In this document: positions 35,359 through 64,000 of the stretch, piece by piece
Numbering within the stretch: the first letter of the stretch is position 1
Layout: each line of letters begins with the position of its first letter
Source of the DNA: an uncultured Chloroflexia bacterium
GTDB taxonomy: Bacteria; Chloroflexota; Limnocylindria; Limnocylindrales; CSP1-4
Reading direction: 5' to 3'
DNA: 64,000 nucleotides
Assembly: GCA_963713975.1 (NCBI GenBank)
Contig: OY970218.1
Location: forward strand, 1,184,001-1,248,000
Program-made: the position numbers and the translations under genes
Notes under the pieces: generated by a model
Database searches by the model: none
What the model was told of the DNA's origin: nothing
Seen by the model: only the letters and a program-made list of their open reading frames with translations

Positions 35359-35439
35359 TCCGCGGCGTCCTGAGGCCCGCAGACAGCCTCGAGGGCAGGC
35401 CGGTTGCCTCAACGCCTCTCGCACGGCGACTATGTGCCA

Positions 35440-45272: not shown

Positions 45273-45335
45273 GAGTACCCCCGTCATCGCTAGGGCAGTT
45301 CGCCCCGTCACGTCCATTGTCGCTCCGCGCGACCT

Positions 45336-46337: not shown

Positions 46338-46804
46338 GACCGCAGGGTAGAACGGAACTGGGTGACAAACATCGATCCGCCCGTCATCAGGGTGGGCATT
46401 GTGGTTGTAGGAGAGTGGGTCCTAGCCGCGGGATAGCCCATTCGGCCGGTCCTTGCGAGCGCAATTACCACGCATTTCACATGCCCCCCCGGCTCGCCCT
46501 ACGGATGGTTGTGGACGAGTGCGCGCCGTAGTGGGAGCGGCGCGGGTCGGCGCGATGGCCAGATGTCGAGAACCGGCCGGAGGCCAGCATGCGGGCATGA
46601 TCAGATCGAGCCGACGGAGGGAGACCGTCGGGGCGGGCTGTCCAGATCTCGTGGCCGCCGGCGATCAGTCCTCATCGCCGCCAACGTCCGGCTTCGTGTC
46701 CGCCTGCGTCCAGATTCCTATGGCCGCCGTCAGACATTCAGAACCGAGTCCCTTGACACCATGACGCCGGAAGAGCTACTCGGCCGGACCGTACACAATC
46801 CGGC

Positions 46805-46833
46805 TTGACTAGCGTCCACAGGCAGCGCAGCAT
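46805..46833 (+). promoter_or_regulatory. Putative sigma70 leaderless promoter of the Phd/T4SS/Tad operon
   Basis: TTGACT-N17-CAGCAT-N6-ATG(46840). Confidence 0.45.
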
Positions 46834-46839
46834 GCCGCC

Positions 46840-47148
46840 ATGCAGAACGTCATCGGCATCCGAACCCTTCGCCGGCAGGTGAACGAGTCGCTCCTGCGCG
46901 TGGCGCGCGGCGAGACGATCGTCATCGCCCGGCACGGGCGTCCGGTCGCAATCATGCGGCCGATCACCGACGGCGACACGGGCCGGCGGGTATCGGTCAC
47001 GACGTTCCGCCGCAACCTGCGGCGGGCCCTGGTCGTGACGCGACGCCGGCCGATCGTGCTCACCTGGTATGGCGACGGGGCCGCGGTCATCGCGCCCGTG
47101 CCCCCGGAGCTTGAGATCGCGTACGACGACGAAGAGGAGCTGGAATGA
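46840..47148 (+). CDS. Tandem Phd/YefM antitoxin-domain protein
   Basis: IGIRTLRRQV..VARGETIVIARHGRPVAIMRP plus a second repeat. Confidence 0.8.
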   Translation: MQNVIGIRTLRRQVNESLLRVARGETIVIARHGRPVAIMRPITDGDTGRRVSVTTFRRNLRRALVVTRRRPIVLTWYGDGAAVIAPVPPELEIAYDDEEELE

Positions 47149-47744
47149 CGGCGGGCGGCATGATCCAGGCGCTCGGGATGCGCGAGGTCCGCGGCAACAT
47201 GCGCGCGGTCGTGGCCCGGGTCGAAGAGGGCGAGGCGCTCGTCGTCCTGCGCGACGGCCAGCCGAGTGCTGTCATGCTCGCCTTCGCGGAGGCGCAGCGC
47301 TGGCAGCAGATCGAGCGCGCCCTGTCCGCGTTCCACGGCCTCGAGATCTACCCGGAGCTCGCCCGCGACACGCCCGAGCTGGCCCGGATCGTTCGGCGCG
47401 AGACCCGGCCGTCGGGTGCCGCGGTGCGCCGGCTCGCTGACCAGTCGCGCGACATCCTTGCGCCGCTGCGGACGATGGGGATCACGGACGCCCGCACGAC
47501 GTTTGCAGCGATCCTCGACGAGATCGAGGCCGGGCGGACACTCACGATCGTGTCGTCGGGCCGGTTCGCCGCGACGCTCGTGGCCCCCCGGGAGTTCGAC
47601 CGTCTGCGAACGCTCGACCGCACCGTGAGCTGGTTCCGCGCGGCCGGCCTCGACCTCAGCATCGCCGACGAGGCCGCTGTCGGTGCCTTCGTCCGGGAGT
47701 TCGCGACTCGGTCGGCTGCCTCCGACGCCGCGGCGGCCGGGTAG
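47145..47744 (+). CDS. Tandem Phd/YefM antitoxin-domain protein
   Basis: GMREVRGNM..VEEGE..LRDGQP and GITDARTTF..IEAG..SSGRFAATLV repeats. Confidence 0.78.
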   Translation: MTAGGMIQALGMREVRGNMRAVVARVEEGEALVVLRDGQPSAVMLAFAEAQRWQQIERALSAFHGLEIYPELARDTPELARIVRRETRPSGAAVRRLADQSRDILAPLRTMGITDARTTFAAILDEIEAGRTLTIVSSGRFAATLVAPREFDRLRTLDRTVSWFRAAGLDLSIADEAAVGAFVREFATRSAASDAAAAG

Positions 47745-47752
47745 GGACGGCG

Positions 47753-48148
47753 ATGATGCGGCGGTTCCCGCGCCACGCGATGGTCGCCCGCCTGTGGGTC
47801 GCGGCCCCCTTCGTCGTCGTGCTCCTGTGGCTCGCCGCCGGGTCGACCGTCCTCGGCGCGGACAGCGTCCCGCGGGGCGCCAAGGAGGCGCTCGCGCCGG
47901 TGACGAAGATGATCGGGACCCTGGTCGCGATCGCGATCGGCTTGGGGATCGCGATCTGCGGCGCGGTGATCGTCTGGGGCGGGATCGAGAAGACGCTCGC
48001 GGGCGCGAACCAGGACGCCGAGCATCGCGCCTCGCGGCGGATCCAGAACGGGATCCACGGCCTCGTCTGGATGATCCTGGCGTCCGTCATCGTGTCCACG
48101 ATCACGGCGATCGCGGTCGCCTACGGGCTTATCAACACGCCCTTCTGA
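47753..48148 (+). CDS. VirB2/TrbC-like pilin
   Basis: Signal-like helix, TM helix, AEHRASRRIQNGIHGL, then a second TM helix. Confidence 0.6.
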   Translation: MMRRFPRHAMVARLWVAAPFVVVLLWLAAGSTVLGADSVPRGAKEALAPVTKMIGTLVAIAIGLGIAICGAVIVWGGIEKTLAGANQDAEHRASRRIQNGIHGLVWMILASVIVSTITAIAVAYGLINTPF

Positions 48149-48161
48149 GGTACCCCTGAGC

Positions 48162-49295
48162 ATGCTGACGACCGGGGGCTTGGTTCCCCATGCCCTCCAG
48201 AGCCCGGAGACGGGTGCCGATGCGACCTGGCAGGTGCCGCCTGTGGGCCTCGCCCTCGCCCTTCTCGCGGTCCTGGGGCTTGGGCTCGCGCTGCTCGGGC
48301 AGGCCATGCCGTCGCCGATCGCACCCGTGCCGACAACGGCGGAGCGCGCCGCGCCCCAGGCGCCGGTCGGCGACATCCCGATCCTGGGCGATCCGGTCCG
48401 CGACCTCACGGTCTGGTACTCGGACCGCGTGCGCGACGCCAACCGCGCGGCGCTCGACAACCTGCGGGGCCAACTCCTCACGCCGATCGACCCGCTGAAC
48501 GACAAGGTCACCCGCACCCTGTACGGCCCGATGGTGCTGATCACGATCCCGCTGCTGACGTTCGGCGGCCTCGTCCTGGGCTACCTGATCATGGTCAGCG
48601 GGACGAGCGGGGAGACGGCGTACGCGGCCCGCTCGGTCGCACCGCGGTTCGTCGTGGGGGCGACGCTCGCGATCCTGGGCATCTTCCTCGTGTCGGTGAT
48701 CACCCAGTTCGTCTCGGCGCTCGACGCGGCGATGGTCGGCGTCGCGCTGCCGGCGTCGGCGGTTGGCGATGCGGCCGCCTGGCCATCGACCGGCGGTGTG
48801 TTCCTCGTCCTCCAGCAGGGCGGCTTTGATCCCCAGGTCGCCCAGGGGCCCGACAACTGGAACAGCGGGGCGTGGCTCTCGTCGGGGCTGCTCGCGGGGA
48901 TCCTGACGACGTGCCTCGCGATGCTGAACTGGCTGTTGGCCGGGGTCGAGCGGCTCCTCGTGCTCGTCGGGCCGCTGTGTCTGGCCGCCTACGCGATCCC
49001 GGCCACCGAGCGCGTGACGAGGCTCTGGTTCAAGGTGCTCATCGTCGTCCTGGCGATGCGGTTCGCCTGGGCGATCACGTTCGTCCTGTTCAGCCTCCAG
49101 GCGGGCGCCTACATGGGCGCTTCGGGGGCGCCGGCGACGGTGGCCGACATGAATGTCCTGCTCGGCCTGGCCGCGGGTGCGGCGGCGATGATGCTCGGCC
49201 TCCCGCTGGTGCTGATCCCGGTCGCACTTGCGGGGCCGCAGATCCTCGACGTCGGGAGCGCCGCGCGGACCGTCGCCGCGCTGCGGTACCTCTAG
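48162..49295 (+). CDS. VirB6/TrbL-like polytopic membrane protein
   Basis: Multiple TM helices; PRFVVGA and LVLVGPLCLAAYAIPATE..LWFK pattern. Lies between the pilin and PrgI genes. Confidence 0.65.
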   Translation: MLTTGGLVPHALQSPETGADATWQVPPVGLALALLAVLGLGLALLGQAMPSPIAPVPTTAERAAPQAPVGDIPILGDPVRDLTVWYSDRVRDANRAALDNLRGQLLTPIDPLNDKVTRTLYGPMVLITIPLLTFGGLVLGYLIMVSGTSGETAYAARSVAPRFVVGATLAILGIFLVSVITQFVSALDAAMVGVALPASAVGDAAAWPSTGGVFLVLQQGGFDPQVAQGPDNWNSGAWLSSGLLAGILTTCLAMLNWLLAGVERLLVLVGPLCLAAYAIPATERVTRLWFKVLIVVLAMRFAWAITFVLFSLQAGAYMGASGAPATVADMNVLLGLAAGAAAMMLGLPLVLIPVALAGPQILDVGSAARTVAALRYL

Positions 49296-49297
49296 CG

Positions 49298-50725
49298 ATG
49301 CCGAACCTCGTCGACGTGCCCGAGAACGCCGTCCGCGAGGAGCCGCTGGCGTTTGGGCTCACGGCGCCACAGCTGCTGATCTGCGGGATCGCGGTGGCGA
49401 TCGGCGCGGTGATCCAGCTCATCCCCATGTGGTTACCTCTCCAGATCCTGTTGACGGTGCTGCTCGCGGGCCCGGTGCTGCTCGCGGCGATCCTGCCGAT
49501 CCGGGGTGAACCGGCCTACCGGTGGTTGCTTCGCTGGGTCCGCTACCGGCGCGGTCCGCGCACCTGGCACGCCGTGCTCGGTCCGGATCCACATAAGTCG
49601 CAGATAAGTGAGGAGGCGCACCCTGTCGTGGCTCCGCCCCTCGCGGCCGCAAGCGCGAATACGGCAAGTCTCGGACTTGACGGCAGGGAGGGACAGGTAG
49701 ACCTTGCGGGGGATTCGGCTCCGAGCGTCCAGGAGCAGACATCGATGGGTGAGCGCACCGTCCGACTCCGGGTCGTCGAACTTGACGACGAGGGTCCGGC
49801 GCCCGACCGTTCGAACACGGAAGGCGCGCCACACGAGCGACCCTCGGCAATCCCGCACGTGCTCCCTGGCCTGCGCGTCGTCGCCATCACGAGCTTTGCC
49901 GGTGGGGTGGGCAAGACCACGCTCGCGGTCGAGGTCGCGACGCTGGTCGCGTCCCGTGCCCGGATCCGCTCGCTCGAGGGCACAGAACAGGCGGTCCGTG
50001 TCCTGATCCTCGACGCGTCGCGACTCGCGAGCGCCGTCGGCCTGCGCCTGGGGCTCGACCCGGCCGCCCTGGCAGCCGCCTGGAGCCATCGGATCTGGCG
50101 TGATCCCTCCGCCATCGGGGACCTCGCTGCGGGCACGCGGTGGGGGGTTGATGTGCTCACCCTGCCGCCCCACCCCCAGCTCACCGCGCACGACGGACAG
50201 GCCGACCCACGAGCTGGGGTCTTCGGTGCTGTCGAAGCCGACGCGCTCCTCGAGGGCGTCCAGCGCGCGGGGTATCACCTGCTGGTGACGGACCTGGGCG
50301 GCGTGCTGGAGGACGGCCACCGCCAGCTCATCGACCAGGCCGATGTCGTCCTTGGCGTTGTCCGACCGACCCTCGAGTCGCTCCCGGACGTGTTCCGGCT
50401 CGCGACCGTGCTTCGGCTCCAGGGGATGGGTCGCAAGCTCGGGATCGTCGCCAACGGCGCGGACGACGACACCGAGGTCAAGCGGCTGGCGCGCGAGGCC
50501 GACGTGCCGCTGCTCGGGCGCGTCGGCATCGATCCGGTGTTCACGGTCGCGGCCGACCGCGGCGAGCCCGCCTGGTCCATCGCACCGGCGCGGACGGGCG
50601 AGCTCGTCGGTGTCGCGCGGGCCGCTTGGCCGCTGCTCTCCGATGCGCCCGGGCGCATGACGCGCAGGCGCTCGGTGCTGCGTGCCGTCCGCGACGCGAT
50701 GCCGGCTCCCGGAGGCAACCAGTGA
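49298..50725 (+). CDS. PrgI (VirB3-like) - TadZ/CpaE (MinD/ParA-like ATPase) fusion
   Basis: N-terminal DVP..REEPLAFGLTAPQL, 2 TM helices and GEPAYRW; linker; then FAGGVGKTT and DQADVVLGVVRP. Confidence 0.75.
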   Translation: MPNLVDVPENAVREEPLAFGLTAPQLLICGIAVAIGAVIQLIPMWLPLQILLTVLLAGPVLLAAILPIRGEPAYRWLLRWVRYRRGPRTWHAVLGPDPHKSQISEEAHPVVAPPLAAASANTASLGLDGREGQVDLAGDSAPSVQEQTSMGERTVRLRVVELDDEGPAPDRSNTEGAPHERPSAIPHVLPGLRVVAITSFAGGVGKTTLAVEVATLVASRARIRSLEGTEQAVRVLILDASRLASAVGLRLGLDPAALAAAWSHRIWRDPSAIGDLAAGTRWGVDVLTLPPHPQLTAHDGQADPRAGVFGAVEADALLEGVQRAGYHLLVTDLGGVLEDGHRQLIDQADVVLGVVRPTLESLPDVFRLATVLRLQGMGRKLGIVANGADDDTEVKRLAREADVPLLGRVGIDPVFTVAADRGEPAWSIAPARTGELVGVARAAWPLLSDAPGRMTRRRSVLRAVRDAMPAPGGNQ

Positions 50726-52026
50726 GCACGGAACAGTCACCAGGGTTCGCCCGTGCCCCGCTCTCGTCGGCCACGCTGGGGACCGTCCGGCGGATGCTCG
50801 TCGCGCGCCTCGCGCCCGAAGTGCTCAACCCGTTCGGGCGCACCGAGGAACAGGAGGCGACGCTCCGTCGGACGATCGGCGAGATCCTGGCCGAGCCAGA
50901 GCTCGACCTCGACACGTCGCCGGCACTCGTCGCTGCGGTCGAGGCCGCCGTCTGTGGCCTCGGGCCGCTGCAGCCGCTCGTCGATGACCCGCTGATCGGG
51001 GACATCCTGGTCAACGGCCCAGGAGAGATCTTCATCGAACGCGAGGGCCGCCTCGAGCCGACCGCCGTCACGCTCGGATCCGCCCGAGAGGTCATCGAGC
51101 TTTCCGAGCGGATCGCCGCCCTGGCCGGGCGCGAGCTCTCCGTCGCCCACCCGGTGGTCGATGCCCGGATGCCCGACGGGTCGCGGGTCAACGCCGTCAT
51201 CCCGCCGGTCGGCGGCCCGTACCTCTCGATCCGCAAGTTCAACCGGCTGCGACTCGACCTCGTGCCGGGCGGCCGGCATGGTCGCAACTGGGTCGCCGAG
51301 GGCGGCCTCGATCCCGCCATGGCCGACCTCATCGCCCGTCTCGTGCGAGCGCGCGCGAACATCCTGGTGGCGGGCGAGACGGGCGCCGGCAAGACGACGT
51401 TCCTGCGCTCGGTGACCGACCTGTTCGATCCGGCCGAGCGCATCGGTGTGGTCGAGGACACCGCTGAGCTCGCGCTCGAGAACCCCGACCGGTTCAACCT
51501 CGAGACGCTCCACCCGCACGACCTCACGGGGGGCGAGGCGGACGCGCGCCTGCTCGACGTCGGGGACCTCGTCGCGAACGCCCTGCGGATGCGGCCCGAC
51601 CGGCTGATCGTGGGCGAGATCCGCCTCCCCAAGGAGGCGTTCTACACGCTCCAGGCGCTCCACACAGGACACGACGGATCGGCCACGACCATCCACGCCA
51701 GCAGTGCCGAGGATGCCCTGTTCCGGCTCGAGCTCCTGGCGCGCCAGAGCATGCGCGACCTCACGATCGTCGACCTGCGGACCTACATCGCGCGCGTGTT
51801 CGACCTCGTCGTCGTGCTGCGCCGCCTGCGGTCGGGCCGGCGCATCGTCCGCCAACTGACCGCGGTCGACGGCCTCGCCCCCGACGGGGGCTACCGCCTC
51901 GTCGACGTGTTCCGTGCCGAGGCCTCGCAGGGGTCAGAGGTGATCCGGTTCGTGCGCGACCTCGAATGGCGGCCATCGCCGCGGCTCCTGGCGCGTTTCG
52001 AGATCGAGGGCGAACGATGGAGCTGA
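50722..52026 (+). CDS. tadA: Tad pilus assembly ATPase CpaF/TadA
   Basis: GLGPLQPL, DARMPDGSRVNA, GETGAGKTT, EDTAEL, LRMRPDRLIVGEIR and TGH..TIHA motifs. Confidence 0.93.
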   Translation: MSTEQSPGFARAPLSSATLGTVRRMLVARLAPEVLNPFGRTEEQEATLRRTIGEILAEPELDLDTSPALVAAVEAAVCGLGPLQPLVDDPLIGDILVNGPGEIFIEREGRLEPTAVTLGSAREVIELSERIAALAGRELSVAHPVVDARMPDGSRVNAVIPPVGGPYLSIRKFNRLRLDLVPGGRHGRNWVAEGGLDPAMADLIARLVRARANILVAGETGAGKTTFLRSVTDLFDPAERIGVVEDTAELALENPDRFNLETLHPHDLTGGEADARLLDVGDLVANALRMRPDRLIVGEIRLPKEAFYTLQALHTGHDGSATTIHASSAEDALFRLELLARQSMRDLTIVDLRTYIARVFDLVVVLRRLRSGRRIVRQLTAVDGLAPDGGYRLVDVFRAEASQGSEVIRFVRDLEWRPSPRLLARFEIEGERWS

Positions 52027-52892
52027 TCGGGGCCCTCGCGGTCGGTGTCGCGGTGTTCGCGGCCCTGATGGCGTTGCTGCCATCGCGGGCGCAACCTTCG
52101 CTTGGACTCGGGATGCGGTTGCGAGTGGCGTACGCGGCACGGATCGAGGCGGCCGCGTCACTGCTCGGCCGGGCCCGCTTGGAGATCTCGCCACGCAGCT
52201 ACCTCGCGCTCTCGGTCGCGGCCCCGGTCGCCCTGGGACTCCTGGGGCTGCTGCTCTCGGTGCCGATGGGGATCCTGGGGGTCATCGTCGGCGGCCTCGT
52301 CCCGCGCTGGTACGTCCGCTATCTCGTGGGCTCCGAGGCACGCGCCGCGGCCGACGATGCGCCACGGGTCCTGCGCGCCATGGTCAACCGGGCAGCGTCC
52401 GGCGGCACGTATCCGGACCTGTTCGCGGCGGCGGCCGAGGCGGCCCGCCACCGCTGGGTGAAGGCCGACTTCGAGGAAATTCTCGGTCGCTACTACGCGA
52501 ACGAGCCCCCGGCAGAGGTGCTCATCGACGTCCGCCGGCGCCAGGCGGGGCGGAACCTCGCCCTCGTCTACGACGCGCTGATCACCCTCACCCGGACCCA
52601 TCAGCCGGTCTCGGCCGCGGCCGACGTCCTGGGCTCGCTCGGCGAGGCGGCGCGCGCGAACCAGTCCATCGCCCGCCAGGCCGCCGCCGAGAGCAAGGGG
52701 CTGCGGCTCCAGGCGGCGATCCTCGCGATCGTCATCCCTGCCCTGTTCCTGTACCTCACGCTGGTCAACGGGGAACTGATTGCGCCCGTCATGGCGACCC
52801 CGCTCGGGCGCTACGTCCTGCTGCCCGCAGCCGCCCTGCTCGAAGTCGCAGGCATCGTCCTGTCCTGGCGCGTCACGAGGCTGGAGGCGTAG
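52017..52892 (+). CDS. tadB: TadB-like inner membrane platform protein
   Basis: T2SSF-like topology; directly follows tadA. Confidence 0.78.
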   Translation: MELIGALAVGVAVFAALMALLPSRAQPSLGLGMRLRVAYAARIEAAASLLGRARLEISPRSYLALSVAAPVALGLLGLLLSVPMGILGVIVGGLVPRWYVRYLVGSEARAAADDAPRVLRAMVNRAASGGTYPDLFAAAAEAARHRWVKADFEEILGRYYANEPPAEVLIDVRRRQAGRNLALVYDALITLTRTHQPVSAAADVLGSLGEAARANQSIARQAAAESKGLRLQAAILAIVIPALFLYLTLVNGELIAPVMATPLGRYVLLPAAALLEVAGIVLSWRVTRLEA

Positions 52893-52896
52893 GGCG

Positions 52897-53802
52897 ATGG
52901 AGCTCGTGGGAACGGCCGCGGTTGCACTCGCGGTGTTCTGCCTGTGCATGGCGGTGTTCGGCGGATCGCTGCTCACGCCGCGGCGACTCGACGCGATCCG
53001 CGCGGTCGCGCTTCCGAGGCAGCAGTACGAGCGCCTCGTGTCGGACGACCAGCCGCTCTGGGAGCGGATCCTGCGCCCCGTCGCGGTGCGCCTCGCCGCC
53101 AGGGCGCCCGCATTCGCGTCCCAGGTGAGCGAGCGCGACCTCATCCGGGCTGGGTTCGACCCGCAGGTCCTCACTCCCGCCGAGGTCTACGCCGCCAAGG
53201 TGGTGCTTGCTGCCGCCATCCTCGCGGTCGGCTTCGCCCTCACCCCGCTGTTCTCCGCGGCGCTGCTGGTCGCGCTCCCGATCGCCTTTGTGGGCTACGT
53301 GTTCCCGACCGAGTACCTGGCGTCTCGCGCCAAGGCGCGCCAGGCCCAGATCGGGCGCGAGCTCCCGGACTTCCTGGCGCTCGTGCGTCCGCTCGCCGCG
53401 AAGCACGGCCTCGAGCACGCGGTGGCGGACGTGGCCGACGCGCTCCACGAGGCGTCCGGCGGCGGCAACCTGCTCGCCCGCCAGATCCGCGGCGCCGTGG
53501 CGGCGTACGGCACGGGCACGGATCTGTACGCCGCGTTGCGCGACGTCGCGGCGGCATCGGACATCGAGGCGCTCGACGAGCTGGCCGCTGCCCTGGCGCA
53601 GTCACGAAAGCTCGGCAAGGGCGTCGGCGAGACCCTCGGCGAACACGAACGTTCGCTCCGCGACGCCGAGCGCAACCGGCTCATCGGTGCCGCCTCGACG
53701 GTGCAGCCGAAGCTTGCCGCAATCCTGGCCGGGATCTATCTGCCCGCGTTCGTCCTGCTCATCGTGGTCCCGCTGTTCGCCTCGACACTCGGTCGAATCT
53801 AG
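52897..53802 (+). CDS. tadC: TadC-like inner membrane platform protein
   Basis: RELPDFL, QSRKLG and C-terminal PAFVLLIVVP motifs. Confidence 0.82.
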   Translation: MELVGTAAVALAVFCLCMAVFGGSLLTPRRLDAIRAVALPRQQYERLVSDDQPLWERILRPVAVRLAARAPAFASQVSERDLIRAGFDPQVLTPAEVYAAKVVLAAAILAVGFALTPLFSAALLVALPIAFVGYVFPTEYLASRAKARQAQIGRELPDFLALVRPLAAKHGLEHAVADVADALHEASGGGNLLARQIRGAVAAYGTGTDLYAALRDVAAASDIEALDELAAALAQSRKLGKGVGETLGEHERSLRDAERNRLIGAASTVQPKLAAILAGIYLPAFVLLIVVPLFASTLGRI

Positions 53803-53818
53803 TTACCGGAGGTGCGCC

Positions 53819-54016
53819 ATGAACCTAACTGACCTGCGACACCTGCTCCGGCGGATCTGGGCCGCGGTCCACGCCGATGAACGGGGCCTGACGACGCTCG
53901 AGTACGTGATTGCGGCCGGGATCATCCTCGTCGTGCTGGCGGCGGCGATCCTCGCCTGGAACAACGGGCTCGCCGCGAAGATCGGCGATCTCGTTCGTCA
54001 GCTGTCGGGGTCATGA
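53819..54016 (+). CDS. flp: Flp major pilin
   Basis: DERG|LTTLEY prepilin motif; RBS GGAGG. Confidence 0.88.
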   Translation: MNLTDLRHLLRRIWAAVHADERGLTTLEYVIAAGIILVVLAAAILAWNNGLAAKIGDLVRQLSGS

Positions 54017-54438
54017 GACCGCCACGGAACGCGCTGCCGGCGTGGCAGCGGCGACGAGGCGAGGCGGGAGCGGCGGCGGTCGAGGCGGTCCTCGTCGTGC
54101 CGCTCGTGCTGATCCCGGTTCTGTTTGCGGTCTTCATCTTCGGTCGTCTCGCGCACACCCGGATCGTGCTCGACGCCGCCGCTGCGGCGGGGGCGCGCCA
54201 GGCTGCCGTCGCAGGCGCAGACACGCCGACCGTCCGTGGCCGCATCGCGACCGAGCTGCGCGACGGGGGATTGAATCCGGCCCATGTCAGTGTGACCATC
54301 GAGCCATCGGTGGCCGGCTGGGGCGAGCCGATCCACATCCGCCTCGCGACCGACGAGGAGGCCGGCATCCCGTTCCTGGGCACCTGGCCCATTCCGATGT
54401 CGTCGGAGTTCGTCACCCGGAGCGAGGTGACCCACTGA
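54013..54438 (+). CDS. tadE: TadE-like pseudopilin
   Basis: GAAAVEAVLVVP and AAAAGARQA motifs. Confidence 0.85.
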   Translation: MRPPRNALPAWQRRRGEAGAAAVEAVLVVPLVLIPVLFAVFIFGRLAHTRIVLDAAAAAGARQAAVAGADTPTVRGRIATELRDGGLNPAHVSVTIEPSVAGWGEPIHIRLATDEEAGIPFLGTWPIPMSSEFVTRSEVTH

Positions 54439-54935
54439 TGACGCGATCGCGGACCCGGGTCGGCGAGCGTGGCCAGGTCGCCGTCTACGCGATCCTGCTG
54501 TTCCCGCTGCTCATGCTCGTCCTCACGCTGGTGCTCGCGGTCGGTTCGATCGAGGGCCTGCGGACCCGGATCCGGGCGCAGCTCGACATGGCGGCGCTCA
54601 CCGCCACCCAGGCGCTCGACATCGCCGCGCTCGCGCGCGGTGGTGAGCCCGTGCTGGACGCCGCTACAGCCGACGCGCTTGCCCGTGAGTACCTCGCCCG
54701 GAACCTCGCCACCCTCGGTGATCAGATCGTCGCGTCGCCGACGTCGATTGCCGCCGCGGCCGAGGTCGTGGTCACGAACTCAGCAGGCGTCGACCCCATC
54801 ACCGGCGCCTCCAATACCGCGCCGACGGTGAGCATCCGTATCAGGGTGCCGGCACGCATTCCGCTGCTCGGCCTCGCCGGGCTGGACACCACCGTCGAGC
54901 TGACGCTCACCGGCTCGGCGGCTGCGAGGAGCTGA
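54438..54935 (+). CDS. tadG: TadG-like pseudopilin
   Basis: ERGQVAVY..DMAALTA motif. Confidence 0.75.
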   Translation: MTRSRTRVGERGQVAVYAILLFPLLMLVLTLVLAVGSIEGLRTRIRAQLDMAALTATQALDIAALARGGEPVLDAATADALAREYLARNLATLGDQIVASPTSIAAAAEVVVTNSAGVDPITGASNTAPTVSIRIRVPARIPLLGLAGLDTTVELTLTGSAAARS

Positions 54936-54937
54936 CG

Positions 54938-55504
54938 ATGACGACCCCCAGCCGCATTCGGACCCCGATCCTGGCAGTGGCAGCGATCGCTCTCGGGCTC
55001 GCGGTCGTCGGCGGAATTCTGCTCGCCGGCCGGGTGGGCGTGTCCGATGCCACGCCTTCGCCGTCGATCGCGACATCGGCGGCGCCGACCGCGACGCCGA
55101 CGCCCGCCCCGACGGATCCGCTCTCGAGCCCCGAGGGGGCGGTTCGCGCGTTCTTCGCGGCTTTCGGCGAGGCTCGACGAACCGATGATCCGTCGGCGCT
55201 CGTGGCACTCGTCACCAGCACCGACTCCTCGGCCTACCTCACGGCATCGGGGTTCCTCGCGGGTCAGAAGGCGGACGGGAAGGCGTCGGTCTTGACGACC
55301 AACGAGATCCGCGACCTGGTCGTCGTCCCCGATGGTGATCGAGCGACCGTGACGTTCCTCCACCACCAGGTTGGCTTCGACATCGACCTCGCGACCGGCG
55401 AGCCGAAGGAGAGCCCAACTGCCCTGCCCGACGCCACCGTGCGGGTCGTCGTCGTCCGAACTGGCGATCGATGGCTCGTGGACTCCTTCGAGAACGTCCC
55501 ATGA
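54938..55504 (+). CDS. Membrane-anchored protein with Pro/Thr linker and NTF2-like domain
   Basis: N-terminal TM helix, PTATPTP linker, PEGAVRAFF and VVVVRTGDRWLV. Confidence 0.6.
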   Translation: MTTPSRIRTPILAVAAIALGLAVVGGILLAGRVGVSDATPSPSIATSAAPTATPTPAPTDPLSSPEGAVRAFFAAFGEARRTDDPSALVALVTSTDSSAYLTASGFLAGQKADGKASVLTTNEIRDLVVVPDGDRATVTFLHHQVGFDIDLATGEPKESPTALPDATVRVVVVRTGDRWLVDSFENVP

Positions 55505-56706
55505 GGCGGCGGCTCCTATGGCTCGGAGCTGTGGTCGCAGCCACGGCGCTCGCCCTTGTGCCGCAGGGCAGCGCCCTTGCCATTGACGATGTCAGCGTCA
55601 CGGTCAAGACCTGGCACGCGGGCGCCGGCCGCGCCTACGTCGGCGTCCAGACGGCCGGGCAGTGGGCGCCCCCGAACAGGCGGTCCTGCGTCGGCTACTA
55701 CTCGACCTGGGACCACATCGCAAGGATCGACACCCGACCGGTCCGCGACGAGTGGTACGTCAAAGCGCACACGTGCTCCGGCAGCACCGTGAACCCCTTG
55801 AGTCCGACGATGGTGCTCACGAGTCGCACAAGCCCGGGCATCGGGATCCGGCGTGAGACAACGGGACGGCTCCGGCTCGACCTCGGGGTCGCAGTCGACC
55901 CTGTGACTGCTCCCGCAGGCACGGTCCGGACGGTCACGGCAGCGCTTGCCGGCGACTGGTTGGACGCGATCGGGGACGAGATCAGCGCCTACGTCATCCG
56001 CGACTCCGTCCGCGTCCGGCGCTGGACGGTCGACTTCGGGGACGGCACGGTGCGGACCATCGCGCCCGATCCTGCTGCGCCCACTCGGCTCGCGACGACG
56101 CATCCCTATGGCCCAGGCGAGTTCCAGGTGACGGTGACGGCGCGCGTCACGGGCACTGCCTACGGCGCCTTCTTCACGCCCGCCGGAACCCCGTTCGAGG
56201 ACAGTGTCCCGTTCGCGCTCGACCTCACCAATGCCGCCACGGGGATCGCGGGGCTGCCGATCGAGTACGTCCCGCCGGTCGTCACCGTCGGTGGCAGCCC
56301 GTCGGGCTCCCTGCCGGACGGCACCACAGCCACGCCCGATGCTACCGGGCACGCGGCGATCTTCTGGCCCCGGGGCCTGCCGTGTGACCTCTTCGTCCGC
56401 CCAATCATCGAGCGGGAGGGCTTCATGCGATCGGGTGGCGTGGTCATCGGCGGCGGCAGGACGCGGCTCGTCGGGTACCGCTACACAGCCGGCACCAACG
56501 ATGCTGTCGATGCAAGCAGGAACGGCGTGTATCCCGCCGCTGTGCCCATCCGGATCCAGTGGAACACGCCGCTGCCTGGGACAAGGTCATACCCCGTCCG
56601 GCTCGTGCTCGACCTCGAGACGACCTATGACGACGGGACCGTTCGTGCCTCGCAGGTCTCAGGGACGGTGGACGTGACCGTCGTTTACTCCGCGGTCAGC
56701 CAGTAG
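55501..56706 (+). CDS. Secreted PKD/Ig-like domain protein (putative adhesin)
   Basis: Signal peptide ending ALA; WTVDFGDG..H.Y..GEFQVTVT motif. Confidence 0.7.
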   Translation: MRRRLLWLGAVVAATALALVPQGSALAIDDVSVTVKTWHAGAGRAYVGVQTAGQWAPPNRRSCVGYYSTWDHIARIDTRPVRDEWYVKAHTCSGSTVNPLSPTMVLTSRTSPGIGIRRETTGRLRLDLGVAVDPVTAPAGTVRTVTAALAGDWLDAIGDEISAYVIRDSVRVRRWTVDFGDGTVRTIAPDPAAPTRLATTHPYGPGEFQVTVTARVTGTAYGAFFTPAGTPFEDSVPFALDLTNAATGIAGLPIEYVPPVVTVGGSPSGSLPDGTTATPDATGHAAIFWPRGLPCDLFVRPIIEREGFMRSGGVVIGGGRTRLVGYRYTAGTNDAVDASRNGVYPAAVPIRIQWNTPLPGTRSYPVRLVLDLETTYDDGTVRASQVSGTVDVTVVYSAVSQ

Positions 56707-56719
56707 GGGAGGTGCCACC

Positions 56720-57412
56720 ATGCGTGCCCGCCGGACCGTCTACATCGTCATCTTCGTCGCGGCGAGCCTGATCGCCGCGGGCGCCTACTACCTTGCCCAG
56801 CCGCGCATCGACGTGGTGCGTGCCCGCCAGGACATCGCGGTGCTCACCCCGATCAGCGCCGACATGGTCGAGCTCGTCCGGGTCAGCCCGCTCGGTGCCC
56901 CATCCTCCTCGGCCCGCTCGCTCGACGCCGTCGTCGGGCAATATGCGGCGCTGCCGATCCTCGCCGGTCAGGACGTCGATACCCGGGCGATCGAGGTGAC
57001 GCCCGGGTCGCAAGCCTTCGGCTTCGGAGCACCGCTCGGTCCCGGCGAGGTCGCCTTCGCGCTCCCTGTCGCTGCCGACCAGGCGGTCGGCGGTGCGTTG
57101 TCGCCTGGTGCCCGTGTCGACGTCATCGCCGTCCCCAACGAGCTCAAGACCGGCTTGGCTGCGGCGAGTCCCGGGCCCGGCGCGGTCACGATGGGCCAGG
57201 GTCTCACGATCCTTGCGCTGCGGACGAGCGACGGACACCAGCTCACCGATGTGGCAGCCGGCGGATCGACGGCGGTCGTCCCGCCGAAGCTCGGCTCCGT
57301 GGTCGTCGCCATTCCCGCAGAGCGAGTCGCCGACTTCGCGACCGCGGCGCTGACCTCGACGTTCTACCTGGCCCTCGACCCGGGACAGCCGGGGGCGGCG
57401 GCGGTGCCGTGA
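56720..57412 (+). CDS. cpaB: CpaB/RcpC SAF-domain protein
   Basis: VVRARQDI, VVGQYA..PILAG and GGALSPGARVDVI motifs. Confidence 0.85.
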   Translation: MRARRTVYIVIFVAASLIAAGAYYLAQPRIDVVRARQDIAVLTPISADMVELVRVSPLGAPSSSARSLDAVVGQYAALPILAGQDVDTRAIEVTPGSQAFGFGAPLGPGEVAFALPVAADQAVGGALSPGARVDVIAVPNELKTGLAAASPGPGAVTMGQGLTILALRTSDGHQLTDVAAGGSTAVVPPKLGSVVVAIPAERVADFATAALTSTFYLALDPGQPGAAAVP

Positions 57413-57559
57413 CCAGAACCTTGCGCTGATTGGTCGTCGAGCCCGCTGGCCCTGAGGATCGGGCACCTGCCGGTCCGCTGACCGGCGATCTGCCTGGGAC
57501 CAGCCGCGGGTCGGCCAGGCCCTCGCGGAGCGCAACGCGAGACGGAGGCGTCCTGCCTG

Positions 57560-57700
57560 CTATCGCAGGATCGACGCGACCGCCTGCTCCCTCTTCTTTG
57601 AGAGCGCGCCGATCTGATCTCGCGGATGTTGCCGTCCGCGCTGATGAAGATGTGCGTCGGGATCCCCGCGAAACGGTAGGCGCCGCCGATGGTCGCCCCC
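57560..57700 (-). pseudogene. TlpA-like thioredoxin C-terminal fragment
   Basis: AYRFAGIPTHIFISADGNIR, frameshift, then IGALS..AVASIL*. Confidence 0.55.
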
Positions 57701-57957
57701 CGGACGCGGATCAGGGTGAGGATCGCGGACGATCAGGGACCGGGGAAGGGCCGTTGAGAGGATCGAGCGACGCCGGATGGCGGGTGGCTGTGTGCGGTCT
57801 GTCAGTCCGGCGCGTCCATAGGCCCGGGCCGGTGCCCGCTCGCGGCCGCGAGGCTGTCCGGTCGACCGCCCGCACCCCGTGAAACGGTTTGGCTCTGACA
57901 GGTACCAACCCAGGTAGAGGGCGCGACCCGCGCCCCGACGCATGGGACGGGACCACG

Positions 57958-58407
57958 GTGAACGATCGGATCTGGCGGAGCGTTTCGGGGGCGGCCGTGG
58001 CCGCGTCCCTTGTTGCAGCGGGCGCCATCGGCGCCACGGCCATCGGCGCCGATGCCGACTCCTCGGGGCAGCAGGCCCCGGTGCGAGCCGTGGTCGCAGC
58101 GCCGGTCACCGCGAGCCCCGGGCTCCAGGCGCCGGTGCCGACGCCGATGACGTGGCCCGCTCTCACCGACCGCGAGGACCACGCGGCCATCCCGGCCCCG
58201 AGTGCCACCCCGCGGGCGACGAACAAGCCTGCGCCCGCCTGGACCCACCACCCGGCCGCGACGCCGCGCGTCACGCATCATCCCGACCCCACGCCGCGCG
58301 CGACGCACCATCCGCGCGCCACGCCCCATCCGCGCGCCACGCCCCATCCCACTGAGGCGCCGCATCACGGTGGAGATCATGGCGGCGGTCATGGCGGCGA
58401 CGACTGA
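57958..58407 (+). CDS. Secreted Pro/His-rich protein
   Basis: Signal peptide, PRAT(H/P)H repeats and a HHGGDHGGGHGGDD tail. Confidence 0.6.
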   Translation: MNDRIWRSVSGAAVAASLVAAGAIGATAIGADADSSGQQAPVRAVVAAPVTASPGLQAPVPTPMTWPALTDREDHAAIPAPSATPRATNKPAPAWTHHPAATPRVTHHPDPTPRATHHPRATPHPRATPHPTEAPHHGGDHGGGHGGDD

Positions 58408-58544
58408 GGCATGGCCAACAGGGGCCGGACGGGCCCGGTCAACTGGCCTCAAGGCCCCTGTGCCGGCTCGCCAGCTCCCGTGACGATGTCGCCGGCCTCA
58501 CCGTCGCACACGCTGGCGGTCCGTCCCGGGCCGGGAGGGCACCA

Positions 58545-59225
58545 ACGATCCGCACGACCATCACCGCCCCCGCTGATGACGCCCTCCCGGTCGTCGAGTG
58601 CGACGAGGATGCGCGCCGTGTCGTCAGAGCCGTCCTTGCCGGTGACCGCGACGCCTTCGCCCGCCTCGTTGATCGCGAGATCGGCAACGTCAACCGTGTC
58701 TGCTACCGGGTGCTGGGCGACCGTCATGATGCCGAGGAAGCCGCCCAGGAGGCCTTCGTGAGCGCTTACCGCACGCTCCCGGCCTGGCGGGGGGACGGAC
58801 CCTTCGGCGCCTGGGTGGCCCGGATCGCGCTGCACATCGCCCTCCGCCGCCGCAAGAACGCGCGTCCAGTCGTCTGGATCGACCCAGCGGCGCTGGACGG
58901 CCCGGACCCGCTCTCGGCGGGCGCCGATGGCGGCGGCCAGCGGAGGGTCACCAGGCACTTCCGGGACGCGTCGGTCGAGGCGGCACGGACGAACGATCCC
59001 GCCGAGATCGCTGTCACGATGGAGCGCGAGGCCTCCGTCCGCGACGCGCTGCTGGCCCTCGACGAGCCCTACCGCGAGACGGTCGCGCTCCGCTACTTCG
59101 CCGGGCTCACCGTCCCCGAGATCGCCGAGGTCTGTGCCCGGCCCCAGGGCACCGTGAAGACCCACCTCCACCGGGGCCTGCTGCGCCTGCGGGGCCATCT
59201 CGACGACGCGGGGGCCGACCGATGA
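58545..59225 (+). CDS. ECF RNA polymerase sigma factor
   Basis: GDRDAFARLV, DAEEAAQEAF, FGAWVARIA and EIA..PQGTVKTHLHRG motifs. The only plausible start is ACG after GGAGG. Confidence 0.88.
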   Translation, partial: TIRTTITAPADDALPVVECDEDARRVVRAVLAGDRDAFARLVDREIGNVNRVCYRVLGDRHDAEEAAQEAFVSAYRTLPAWRGDGPFGAWVARIALHIALRRRKNARPVVWIDPAALDGPDPLSAGADGGGQRRVTRHFRDASVEAARTNDPAEIAVTMEREASVRDALLALDEPYRETVALRYFAGLTVPEIAEVCARPQGTVKTHLHRGLLRLRGHLDDAGADR

Positions 59226-59923
59226 CCGGCCGCGGTGCCGTGAACAACCCCTGGGAGGCCGACCCTGTTGCACCTGCCGACGCCGAACACATGCGGTCGG
59301 CGGCTGCCGAGCTCGAGCGGTTCGCGCTGGCGACCGACATCGCGCCGCGGGTGGGGTTCGGCGCCCAGATCATGGCGGCCCTCGAGGCGGATCCTGTTCC
59401 CGCGCCGCTGACGGCGCTCGGCGCCGCCACGCGACGGAGGCACCTTCGCGCCATGCTGGCCGCGCTGGGCGACGCGTGGCGGGTGGCCTGGAGCGGCGGC
59501 CGGCCGGCGGCAATCCGGTTGTCCGCGGCGATGACCGTGCTGGTGCTGGTCGTGGCGGCCGGGTCGCTGGGCAGCCTCGCCGCGGTCGGCGCATGGAGCG
59601 CCCTCCAGCCGCCCCAGCCAACTCCAACCCCATCGCTGCCGGTGGACCTGGTCCCGGTCATCGTGCCGCCGGCAGACCCGCGACCCTCGCCCAGCGAGGC
59701 GCCCGCGACGGCGGCGCCAAGCGGGTCCTCCACACCGTCCCAATTGCCGCGCCTCACACCGTCGGCGGTCCCGGTGCGCACACCCCGGCCCACCGTGAAG
59801 CCGAAGCCGACGCCGAGGCCCACTGCGAGGCCGACGCCGCGCCCGACACACCATCCTGAGCCGACGGCCGTGCCGGAGGCGACGCATCACCCCGAATCGA
59901 CCCACGCTGCCGGAGGCGACTGA
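59222..59923 (+). CDS. Putative anti-sigma factor with Pro/His-rich extracytoplasmic tail
   Basis: ATGA-coupled to the sigma gene; P.VGF..QIM motif, a single TM helix and THHPE repeats. Confidence 0.7.
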   Translation: MTGRGAVNNPWEADPVAPADAEHMRSAAAELERFALATDIAPRVGFGAQIMAALEADPVPAPLTALGAATRRRHLRAMLAALGDAWRVAWSGGRPAAIRLSAAMTVLVLVVAAGSLGSLAAVGAWSALQPPQPTPTPSLPVDLVPVIVPPADPRPSPSEAPATAAPSGSSTPSQLPRLTPSAVPVRTPRPTVKPKPTPRPTARPTPRPTHHPEPTAVPEATHHPESTHAAGGD

Positions 59924-59967
59924 GCAGGCGGAGGAGAGCTGACCCGTCCGCTAGCTGTGATGACCGC

Positions 59968-61080
59968 CTACCGGGTCGCCGACGTCGCCGCCTCGTGGTG
60001 CCGCAGCTCTTCATGCGGGTCGGACCCGTCGTGGCCGCACGGGTTCACGTGGATGACCGCCGTGTCGAGCTTCGGGACGTCGTGCAGCAGCCGGTGCCGG
60101 ACGTCCTCCGACACGCGGTGCCCCTCGGTCACCGTCATGTCGCAGTCCACGGTGATGGCCAGCGACGCCTCGAGGGCGTGGCCCACCCAGCGGAGCCGCA
60201 GCCGCGTCACGTCCTGCACGTCCGCCACGGACCGCGCGGTCCGCTCGACGTCGTCGACGAGCTCTGGCTCCACGGCGTCCATCAGGCGCCCGAGCATCTG
60301 GGCGGTCGCCTGCTTGAGCACGACCAGGATCGCGACGGTGATGAGGAGGCCGACCAGGGGATCTGCGATCGGGAACCCGAGGGCGACGCCGATGGCGCCC
60401 GCCACCACCGCCAGCGACGTCAACCCGTCGGTCCGGGCGTGGTAGCCGTCCGCGACCAGGGCGGCCGAGCCGATCTCGCGCCCGACGCGGATGCGGTACA
60501 GCGCGACGAGCTCGTTGCCGGCGAAACCGATGATGCCGGCGGCGATGACCATCGGGATGTTGGTGATCACGACGGGGTTGATGAGCCGGGTGATTGACTC
60601 GTAGGCGGCGAGCGCCGCGGACCCGAGGATCATGAGCAGGACGAACAGCCCCGCGAGGTCCTCGGCCCGGCGGTAGCCGAAGGTGTAGCGGCGCGTCGCC
60701 GCCCGCGCGCCGACGACGAACGCGATCCACAGCGGGATCGCCGTCAGGGCGTCGCTGAAGTTGTGGATCGTGTCGGCCAGCAGGGCGACGGAGCCCGAGA
60801 CGATCACGACCCCGAGCTGGAGGACGGCGGTGATCCCGAGCCCGACCAGCGAGACCTTGACCGCCCGGATGCCGCGCGCGTTGCTGGTCAGCGCCTCGTC
60901 GACGGCGTCGGCGGGATCGTGGCTGTGGCCCACGATCGAGGCCAGGAACCCCGCGAGACCTCCGTGGGCGTGGCCGTGCTCGTGGTCATGGGGATCCGCA
61001 GGGGCGTGCCCGTGGGCCGGATCCGGCTCCTGTGGGTGGGGATGGTCATGCGGGTGGTCATGGTCGTGCGGCAGGGTCAC
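59968..61080 (-). CDS. Cation diffusion facilitator transporter with His-rich N-terminus
   Basis: SVALLADTIHNFSD, ADGYHARTD and RLRWVGH motifs. Confidence 0.92.
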   Translation of the reverse strand: MTLPHDHDHPHDHPHPQEPDPAHGHAPADPHDHEHGHAHGGLAGFLASIVGHSHDPADAVDEALTSNARGIRAVKVSLVGLGITAVLQLGVVIVSGSVALLADTIHNFSDALTAIPLWIAFVVGARAATRRYTFGYRRAEDLAGLFVLLMILGSAALAAYESITRLINPVVITNIPMVIAAGIIGFAGNELVALYRIRVGREIGSAALVADGYHARTDGLTSLAVVAGAIGVALGFPIADPLVGLLITVAILVVLKQATAQMLGRLMDAVEPELVDDVERTARSVADVQDVTRLRLRWVGHALEASLAITVDCDMTVTEGHRVSEDVRHRLLHDVPKLDTAVIHVNPCGHDGSDPHEELRHHEAATSATR

Positions 61081-61155
61081 CGGCGTAGTCTCGGCAGGAC
61101 ACCTTGGCGGCGCAAGGACACACGGCCCGCGTCCGTCGGCCAACCGACCCGCGCG

Positions 61156-62343
61156 TCACTCGGCATCGGTCAGCCTCACCGCCGTTCGCAGACCCTCGAC
61201 GACGCCGAACCGCACGCTGATCGGGGTCCCGGTCGCCATGTGCTCCCGGAGGTGACCCGCGTTGAAGCCACCGTCTGTGAGGTCGAGCGTGCCGACCCCG
61301 AACTCGATCTCCTCGCCGGCGTTCGTGCGCAGCGTGAACGAGTTCACCTTGGCGACCGACGCCTGGTCGACGGCGGTCACCAGGCCCTCGACGCTCCCGT
61401 TCGCCGGGGCAACCGTGTCGAAGGCGTCGCGCAGCTCGTCCTCCGCGACGGCGCCCTCGAACTTGGCCGTGACCTTGCCGTTGCCGTCGATGACGAAGAT
61501 CCAGGGCTCGCTGCGTAGCCCCCAGGCATCGGTCCAGGCCGCGGCCTGGAGCTGGCCGTCCGCGAGCACTGGCTGGAGCCGACCCTCGGTGAAGGCCATC
61601 ATGTACGGCTCGACGTTGATGAACGTCAGGGTCGGGTAGTCGGCGGCGACCGTCTTGACGTTCTCGAGCAAGGGGCCGCACATCGCCGTCTGGCAGAACG
61701 CCGGTGTCGCGAAGGCGAGGACGAACGGCTCCCGCGCCGTCAGCGCGTCGGCGACCGAGGTCCGGTAGAAGGCCGGGTCGGGTGCCTGGTCCGTCGAGAC
61801 CCTGGCGAGGTCCCCGCCGACGTCGGCCGCCGTGGGCGTGTCGATGGACACCACCGGGGCGCCGATCGCGAGCGTCGGGCCCGATTCGGCGACATCGAAG
61901 TCGGCGCGCACCTGCTCGCTGCGTCCGTCGGGGAAGATTGCGGTGAAACGCGCGCCCCAGCGGCCGGCCGTCGGGAACTCGACATCGGCGGCGTACAGCC
62001 CGCGCTGGCCCTCGATCGCCCATAGGAAGCGCGAGTCGGTGGTGAAGGCGACCTGGTTCTCGTCCGCCGCAACATCGAAGAACTCGAGCGTGACCGGCAC
62101 GTCCGGCGCCGCGACGAGCTTGTTCGCGGCATCGGTGAGCGAGAACAGGAAGCGGTTCTTCCCGGCGAGGATCTCGGACGAGACGAAGATCGGGTAGATG
62201 TTCGGCTCGCCGGCGGCCGGAGTCGACGCGATGGGTGCGCCAGGGGTCGACGGGGCACTCGACGGACTCACAGGCGTTGATCCACCGCACGCCGCCGCGA
62301 CCAGCGCGACGGCGGTGAGGAACACCGGCATCAATCCACGCAT
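61156..62343 (-). CDS. Lipoprotein with thioredoxin-like domain
   Basis: Lipobox AAAC; FATPAFCQTAMCGP and SEPWIFVID motifs. Confidence 0.8.
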   Translation of the reverse strand: MRGLMPVFLTAVALVAAACGGSTPVSPSSAPSTPGAPIASTPAAGEPNIYPIFVSSEILAGKNRFLFSLTDAANKLVAAPDVPVTLEFFDVAADENQVAFTTDSRFLWAIEGQRGLYAADVEFPTAGRWGARFTAIFPDGRSEQVRADFDVAESGPTLAIGAPVVSIDTPTAADVGGDLARVSTDQAPDPAFYRTSVADALTAREPFVLAFATPAFCQTAMCGPLLENVKTVAADYPTLTFINVEPYMMAFTEGRLQPVLADGQLQAAAWTDAWGLRSEPWIFVIDGNGKVTAKFEGAVAEDELRDAFDTVAPANGSVEGLVTAVDQASVAKVNSFTLRTNAGEEIEFGVGTLDLTDGGFNAGHLREHMATGTPISVRFGVVEGLRTAVRLTDAE

Positions 62344-62380
62344 TGGACTCCTCCATGAGGGCGGCGGCACCCGGGCGCCG

Positions 62381-63912: not shown

Positions 63913-63952
63913 CAGGACACCGGACCAAGCAGGGCAGCGGGTCTCGCCAGCA

Positions 63953-64000
63953 TCACGTGACCGTCACCGCGCCGGCCATGTAGGGATGCGGGTCGCAGGT
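63953..64000 (-). CDS. Cupredoxin/plastocyanin-like C-terminus (partial at window edge)
   Basis: TCDPHPYMAGAVTVT* carries the Cys-His-Met type-1 copper ligands. Confidence 0.7.
   Translation of the reverse strand, partial: TCDPHPYMAGAVTVT

Follow-up and report, generated by a model that had tools for sequence, protein, structure and literature searches.

The window analysed here is a 64,000-nt stretch (G000:C1:1184001-1248000) of the genome of an uncultured Limnocylindrales bacterium, where G000 denotes the genome under study (3.62 Mb in a single contig, 92% complete) and other G labels denote the genomes compared with it. Twelve intact, co-oriented open reading frames (ORFs) fill positions 47753-57412 of the window, separated by gaps of at most 16 nt or overlapping, and bring together components of a type IV secretion system (T4SS) and a Tad pilus. 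The tight packing of 12 intact genes, already reported in a first-pass annotation of the window, is confirmed, but the operon starts two genes earlier, with Phd-domain genes at 46840 and 47145. The 12 genes are probably the leading half ("front half" below) of a conserved conjugation operon whose genes for VirB4, a hydrolase, a coupling ATPase and a relaxase follow 14 kb downstream. The operon lies on a likely Limnocylindria integrative and conjugative element (ICE), and its embedded Tad pilus would likely attach the donor to recipients.

Gene content of the front half

The genes are listed below with window positions; "cut-off" is the Pfam curated cut-off, in bits, and TM stands for transmembrane segment.

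46840..47148, + strand: Phd/YefM-domain protein 1, likely regulator (PF02604, 34.2 bits; first gene in related loci)
47145..47744, + strand: Phd/YefM-domain protein 2 with repeated domains, likely regulator (PF02604, 60.3 bits, 2 stretches)
47753..48148, + strand: VirB2-like T4SS pilin (PF18895 T4SS_pilin, 28.0 bits, cut-off 26.6)
48162..49295, + strand: VirB6/TrbL-like polytopic membrane protein (no direct Pfam match; homolog support)
49298..50725, + strand: PrgI (VirB3-like, aa 7-88, 2 TM), a variable linker and a TadZ/CpaE-like MinD/ParA domain (PrgI, 30.5 bits, cut-off 27)
50722..52026, + strand: TadA/CpaF pilus ATPase, Walker A and B intact (PF00437, T2SSE, 141 bits, E 4.5e-41; TIGR03819, E 6.9e-69)
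52017..52892, + strand: TadB platform protein (PF00482, T2SSF, 24.8 bits, just below the cut-off of 25.2)
52897..53802, + strand: TadC platform protein (PF00482, T2SSF, 30.5 bits, cut-off 25.2)
53819..54016, + strand: Flp major pilin with class III signal (PF04964, E 0.028; cleavage motif)
54013..54438, + strand: TadE pseudopilin (PF07811, 41.6 bits)
54438..54935, + strand: TadG/TadF-like pseudopilin (PF13400, Tad/TadG, E 0.0018)
54938..55504, + strand: one TM, a Pro/Thr linker and one NTF2-fold domain, candidate VirB8-type subunit (SnoaL, E 0.025; structure model, Foldseek)
55501..56706, + strand: secreted PKD/Ig-like protein, N-terminal part more variable, candidate pilus-tip adhesin (PF00801, E 0.0015)
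56720..57412, + strand: CpaB/RcpC (RcpC, 40.9 bits, and SAF, 28.9 bits; NCBIfam)

Pfam matches lie above the cut-off for the T4SS_pilin, PrgI, TadA, TadC, TadE and CpaB proteins and below it for TadB, Flp, TadG, SnoaL and PKD. Combined with NCBIfam matches, the Flp motif and the NTF2 model, they leave the gene names of the first pass largely right, with the VirB6 call indirect, and homology to T4SS was found for the first three of the 12 genes. The VirB6-like protein has eight predicted TM and no Pfam match of its own; indirect support comes from its homologs, five of 19 of which weakly match TrbL (best E 2.3e-4). TrbL or TrbL_4 is also seen in 6 of the 22 distant profile matches scanned (81 were found), and the ESM Atlas gives clusters of the TrbL family at 0.91. 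The structure model of the VirB6-like protein is poor (pLDDT 54.6). The NTF2 fold of the 54938..55504 product is given by a predicted model (mean pLDDT 86.6) and Foldseek matches, and both topology and fold fit an ALPHA-class VirB8 (one TM plus an NTF2 domain), though no VirB8 chain is among the Foldseek matches listed. Searching PDB sequences with this NTF2 profile produced no match (best E 0.22), and 636 protein clusters were found for the gene. For the PKD protein, the best match in an Atlas search (0.80) is a lead at most.

The Tad (type IVc) set is complete, with TadA, TadB, TadC, TadZ, CpaB/RcpC, Flp and TadE/G, and the cleavage motif of Flp, G|xTTLEY, does not vary among the 19 homologs (G23, E28, Y29). 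TadZ is a pilus-positioning protein, and here it is fused to PrgI in 18 of 18 aligned proteins. Its Walker A motif, FAGGxG(K/R)TT, is without the signature lysine of MinD/ParA, which we take to fit a positioning adaptor and not an active ATPase. The prepilin peptidase TadV is not in the locus; the sole A24 match in G000 lies at 219739, about 1 Mb off, and an A24 peptidase occurs in 20 of 20 hosts, in none of them near the transfer region. Chloroflexota have a monoderm envelope, in which the secretin RcpA, a diderm component, is not expected. The host also has a Tad locus of its own near 1.36 Mb (PF00437 match, neighbours judged by eye). The element TadA is far from the host TadAs, which branch apart in the tree, and recent capture of the host Tad operon was rejected on this ground.

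TadA also scores on VirB11/TrbB models (E 2.6e-52) and a VirB2-like pilin is present, which would suit a single machine in which TadA is the VirB11-like ATPase of the T4SS and the Flp or VirB2-like filament is the DNA conduit; a chimeric model was put forward for PAPI-1 (PMC12857230; this and the other papers cited were accessible in part, to which statements about them refer). Such an arrangement seems quite improbable for this locus, where TadA scores higher on the TadA model TIGR03819, is accompanied by its own full set of TadB, TadC, CpaB, Flp, TadE and TadG, and no sign of a conduit was seen. A Tad pilus tied to a T4SS appears to be the best reading of the front-half genes, and to that extent the first-pass proposal of a pilus tethered to a T4SS-type channel stands. 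Its further suggestions of DNA uptake or contact-dependent delivery are unsupported because a full conjugation back half lies in the same element.

The back half and the conservation of the operon

The first pass had described an apparatus lacking VirB4 and VirD4. VirB4, a relaxase and an A24 peptidase were indeed not found within the window, but the missing VirB4 and VirD4 proved to be an artefact of the window edge: a search of the rest of the element recovered VirB4, a type IV coupling protein (T4CP)-like ATPase and a relaxase past the window end. VirB4 was located by a genome search for the VirB4 P-loop family (match G000:1256973-1257803) and starts 7.8 kb past the window end. The back half begins 14,372 bp after cpaB, is intact in G000 and belongs to the same element as the 12 front genes. 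Its genes, and the recombinase of the element, are:

G000:C1:1255785-1258022, + strand: VirB4, 745 aa, Walker motifs intact, best model CD1110 family (VirB4 family search)
G000:C1:1258082-1258972, + strand: SLT-M23 hydrolase, VirB1 homolog (domain match)
G000:C1:1258969-1261341, + strand: T4CP-like ATPase, 790 aa, Walker A/B, N-terminal TM (PF10412 just above cut-off; position)
G000:C1:1261454-1262341, + strand: Replic_Relax relaxase (PF13814, 55.3 bits, cut-off 25.3)
G000:C1:1303480-1304943, + strand: large serine recombinase at tRNA-Arg(CCG) (adjoins the right repeat)

The Replic_Relax family is presumably linked to known relaxases. With these genes the parts of a conjugative T4SS similar to MPF_FATA are present, namely VirB4, T4CP, relaxase, VirB3/PrgI, VirB6 (indirect) and VirB1 homologs. 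The adjacency of virB3 and virB4 that is typical of MPF_FATA is absent, as nine genes including tadA and flp stand between prgI::tadZ and virB4. The unit is one conserved operon of two Phd-domain genes, pilin, virB6, prgI::tadZ, the Tad block, virB4, hydrolase, T4CP and relaxase, in the order phd1-phd2-pilin-virB6-prgI::tadZ-tadA-tadB-tadC-flp-tadE-tadG-ntf2-pkd-cpaB-virB4-slt/M23-t4cp-relaxase.

This gene order, which the first pass had asked to be checked, is identical in every locus examined. On one stretch, cpaB and virB4 occur together at 15 other loci, 12 of them contiguous and three split by cargo; 10 of the 12 contiguous loci run on through hydrolase, T4CP and relaxase, and the remaining two stop at the stretch edge. 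The cpaB stop overlaps the virB4 start in all six cases checked. Fusion and order are conserved across many genomes at 44-88% identity, and the junction is therefore no one-off deletion, a possibility that was rejected. Pairwise dN/dS values of 0.13-0.51 in 33 of 33 comparisons covering 17 genes place the operon genes under purifying selection. TadA and VirB4 trees, drawn from tblastn segments covering over half of the query and in the case of VirB4 by a quick method, have the supported clades G018+G006+G197 and G012+G134 in common.

The element is patchily distributed among genomes of the order: in a survey of 400 others (unpublished G232 counted), PrgI-TadZ was found in 19 and VirB4 in 21, with 14 common to both. 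A VirB6 profile run on 400 phylum genomes gave seven strong matches, all in the same class, and one weak match, and the relatives with the same genes are labelled mostly Chloroflexota or Candidatus Limnocylindrales. The fusion protein was recovered in 317 clusters at E <=0.001 among 8000 candidates, and most of the 120 clusters listed cover at least 93% of the query; 38 shorter PrgI/TadZ matches are possible split forms. In G008, G212 and G290 the frame is broken within TadZ and not at the linker. No close relative was found in the plasmid collection (TadA 39-45%, VirB4 34%). The best run of a sequencing-run search shared 0.25 of words, and contigs of four runs (one recorded as RNA) cover the operon in short pieces that are not evidence of transcription.

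Front halves with no detectable VirB4 turned up in six of nine genomes searched, in a set chosen mostly because VirB4 was absent or had not yet been seen, and G402 has frame breaks in pkd and cpaB. Loss of one operon half does seem to occur, though most cases are fragmented drafts. These front halves are the evidence for what the first pass proposed, a stand-alone chimera of Tad pilus and T4SS working in DNA uptake or contact-dependent delivery with neither VirB4 nor VirD4. The proposal is now very hard to credit: in G000 the back half is intact under a common promoter, which refutes it for this genome, 12 of 15 loci are contiguous, the front half of G402 is itself frame-broken and most other VirB4-less cases come from fragmented assemblies.

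Some variation was seen among related elements. The T4CP and relaxase are of two distinct types on otherwise similar operons, with identities of 36-39% and 26-30%, respectively, as against 51-77% and 41-85%. Integrases and tRNA sites also differ between related elements, which we read as module exchange. An extra 0.8 kb lies between pkd and cpaB in elements from another family (G543:C1:24488-25271 and G497:C2:12157-12939).

Promoter, element ends and proposed mechanism

The two operon halves in G000, which cargo splits after cpaB, carry the same promoter motif:

46791..46839, + strand: predicted master promoter, composed of a GTACACAAT box, 5 nt and TTGAC (-35-like), with the ATG 35 nt after TTG (second copy before virB4)

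The 29-mer before phd1, with up to seven mismatches, recurs at only one other place in the 3.62 Mb, equally far upstream of virB4. In G000, a matrix derived from 15 phd1 promoters of other genomes puts the phd1 site first and the virB4 site third; rank 2 is an unrelated site and rank 4 lies 670 bp before the ThiS gene (motif coordinates: window 46791 region, G000:C1:1255736 and G000:C1:1264422). Split elements have their own promoter copy before virB4, with the ATG at the same spacing where cpaB does not precede; the copy is clear in G000, G343, G393, G012, G134, G212 and G231, offset in G369 and weak in G401. The spacing, with the ATG 35-36 nt after the TTG, suggests leaderless transcripts. 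No toxin partner lies next to the Phd genes, as the adjoining gene is the T4SS pilin both here and in related loci, and an ordinary toxin-antitoxin pair was rejected for lack of a toxin. The two toxin-less Phd-domain genes and the motif are instead a candidate master regulator of transfer.

Further copies of the motif stand some 500-730 bp upstream of the ThiS gene in G000, G187, G248, G134, G543 and G497. That gene opens a set of ThiS-like, unknown, JAB and ThiF genes (a PRTRC-like ubiquitin-type module) after the relaxase at G000:C1:1265094-1267995, which is the same in most long relatives. Before phd1 the motif is often a tandem repeat in clade-specific variants, just upstream of the -35 box. 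A 103-bp stretch at window 46630-46732 matches the terminal part of an IS21-like element at G000:1272951, and position 3342439 as well, with 87% identity; the stretch is also found upstream of phd1 in G187 and is likely a stranded insertion sequence end.

It might be argued that the Tad block is a passenger on an otherwise functional ICE, serving host adhesion or biofilm formation with no part in mating, and that the fusion arose by chance long ago and became fixed. Among type IV filament systems, those of the Tad type are transferred most often (PMC6668835), and these elements bear much other cargo. The idea is unlikely, however, given that the block stands between virB3 and virB4 under the transfer promoter, is translationally coupled to virB4 and is fused to a channel subunit in every aligned protein, in a host with its own Tad locus.

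The limits of the element are marked by a 106-bp repeat (98%) at G000:1173496 and 1304789 that ends in the last 16 bp of tRNA-Arg(CCG). The repeats bound 131 kb, including the whole window and both operon halves, and the interval may include nested or tandem elements. Repeats anchored in tRNA genes with an adjoining integrase were found in G000 and in two of six relatives examined: G401 (56-bp tRNA-Tyr repeat, 84.6 kb, tyrosine integrase) and G187 (40-bp tRNA-Thr repeat, 95.8 kb, tyrosine integrase). In G000 the attachment (att) site falls within the serine recombinase gene, at its 3' end (G000:C1:1303480-1304954; 1173462-1173683). One frame there runs out in antisense tRNA-Arg, and the left repeat is followed by an alternative C-terminal piece; excision would therefore likely change the recombinase tail.

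Other genes of the island include cargo between cpaB and virB4, which starts in the window:

57413..64000: start of the 14.4-kb cargo, with an ECF sigma and three cation-efflux genes

Beyond the window it continues with ArsR, DsbA and AhpC/TSA (thiol-redox genes) and a BlaI-M48 pair, and it is absent in the 12 contiguous relatives. The cpaB-virB4 junction (57412) is a cargo hotspot, holding 14.4 kb in G000, ~10.7 kb in G401, 20.6 kb in G012 and 5.6 kb in G369. Defence-like cargo lies at 22566-27099 and 31464-34655 of the window and comprises a DNA methylase, an unknown gene, a HerA ATPase and a restriction-modification enzyme of type ISP, as well as a protein of the Schlafen/AlbA_2 kind encoded at 35404-36489. 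An ORF on the minus strand (44865-45317) encodes about ten tandem GLSTGPGG repeats with no Pfam match. The element is a likely vehicle of metal-resistance and defence cargo in Limnocylindria. Two channel-less loci were also observed: a small element in G008 (G008:C8:44343-49719) with a Phd gene, T4CP, relaxase and serine recombinase, and a locus in G000 (G000:C1:2266558-2270981) with a relaxase-like ORF (by eye), a tyrosine integrase and tRNA-Gly. Both combine a relaxase or relaxase-like gene with a recombinase and are possible mobilisable hitch-hikers.

The evidence for a pilus-bearing conjugation operon consists of gene content, gene order, the common motif, selection and repeats, while transfer, pilus use and binding are predicted functions. 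The Phd-domain proteins would bind the common promoter motif and switch both operon halves together. Going by family knowledge, the element would excise at the tRNA repeat, the relaxase would nick an origin of transfer (oriT), and the T4CP would pass the DNA into a channel of the monoderm type, built from VirB4, VirB6 and the PrgI domain, probably together with the NTF2 protein, with SLT-M23 opening the wall. TadA, TadB, TadC and CpaB would build an Flp pilus that depends on the host A24 peptidase for processing and carries TadE/G and the PKD protein at its tip. This pilus may replace the surface adhesins of other monoderm systems and bring mating cells into contact, a part played by type IV pili in the transfer of IncI plasmids and PAPI-1 (PMC12857230). 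In the least certain step, PrgI would bind VirB4 and the TadZ half would recruit TadA, placing the pilus motor at the channel, which the fusion could thereby tether. A bolder and distinctly tentative extension is that PrgI-TadZ joins two nanomachines, with PrgI on the VirB4/VirB6 channel and TadZ recruiting TadA, such that a Tad pilus able to retract would extend from the site of the DNA channel and draw the recipient up to it. Conjugation in a monoderm phylum would then be driven by a pilus, with toxin-less Phd domains as master switch.

Several points weigh against a conjugation operon of this kind. The assignments of VirB6 and VirB8 are indirect, and the T4CP is the weakest call, barely above one cut-off (PF10412) and with no match to PF12696. 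VirB4 was not found in G008, G145, G236, G311, G334 and G402 (drafts, with a completeness of 79-94% where given), nor was virB6 found in G343, G393 and G301. Four of the six relatives examined yielded no att pair, though their stretches may be too short; no empty attB or circular form was found, with reads aligned to the operon only, and oriT was not located. The quick method behind the VirB4 tree and kin that are not independent further limit the phylogenetic argument, and transfer, excision, pilus and expression are read from sequence and not from experiment.

Comparison with known systems

The closest parallels come from monoderm islands. Listeria LGI1, which resembles pXO1 and to which regions of Clostridium and Desulfitobacterium are similar (Gilmour et al. 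2010, PMC2834635), is an island with serine recombinases and predicted virB1, virB3, virB4, virB6 and virD4, as well as cpaB, a ParA-like ATPase, tadA, tadB/C and tadG, their function being predicted there too (PMC2834635). By locus-tag order, the Tad block of LGI1 (1891-1885) stands before virB6-virB3-virB4 (1880-1876), virB3 adjoins virB4 and the ParA-like gene is separate, whereas in the present operon virB3 and virB4 stand on either side of the Tad block and PrgI forms a fusion with TadZ; supplementary file 2 lists no relaxase for LGI1 (PMC2834635).

Among MPF_FATA systems (pCF10 prgH-prgI-prgJ, CTn2), the likeness extends to VirB6-, PrgI/VirB3-, VirB4-, VirB1- and T4CP-like genes (PMC4027160, PMC12857230), to the CD1110 family as best VirB4 model and to a candidate VirB8 with one TM plus an NTF2 domain, as in the ALPHA class (PMC12857230). 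PrgI-VirB4 binding has been modelled for pCF10, and virB3 typically adjoins virB4 in Gram-positive systems (PMC12857230). The present operon differs in holding a full Tad set and a VirB2-like pilin. The 2025 review describes Gram-positive systems without conjugative pili or VirB11 homologs that use adhesins instead, and its accessible text does not contain the word "Tad" (PMC12857230). The T4SS of Patescibacteria share the PF18895 VirB2-like pilin, VirB6, PrgI and a monoderm-type VirB4; they differ in being chromosomal and mostly without relaxase, and "Tad" is likewise absent from the accessible text (PMC12102498).

Both gene sets occur on an Embleya sp. plasmid (NZ_CP108778), which encodes PrgI, VirB4 (34% identical), T4CP, a replication-relaxation protein and NlpC/P60 and, 6 kb later, SAF, TadA, two T2SSF and TadE/G genes. 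Judged by annotation only, this Actinomycetota plasmid differs in keeping the two as separate blocks with PrgI unfused to TadZ. The pili of R64 and PAPI-1, which we take to be type IVb systems, offer a functional model for a mating-contact role of the Tad pilus here. The R64 thin pilus (IncI) and that of Pseudomonas PAPI-1 are type IV filaments encoded by a conjugative element, and the pilus helps transfer of R64 and is needed for that of PAPI-1 (PMC12857230, PMC3548315). These systems differ in their diderm hosts, other T4SS classes and separate pilus gene cluster, and no channel-subunit fusion is reported in the accessible text (PMC12857230, PMC3548315).

The first-pass description of the apparatus as undescribed thus applies to the architecture and not to the combination: clusters of T4SS and cpa/tad genes have already been predicted in monoderms, in LGI1 and pXO1 (PMC2834635), and a Tad block between virB3 and virB4 with a conserved PrgI-TadZ fusion was not found described. 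No paper on a PrgI-TadZ fusion or on Tad-bearing Chloroflexota ICEs was listed in searches of mainly freely accessible literature. The genes described here point to an abundant ICE family, under selection in monoderm Chloroflexota, with a Tad pilus built into the transfer operon. This architecture, which also fuses a pilus-positioning protein to a channel subunit, contrasts with the review view of Gram-positive systems as adhesin-using and VirB11-less (PMC12857230), and it provides a testable handle on why Tad genes recur in the conjugative elements of monoderms, including LGI1, pXO1 and actinobacterial plasmids.

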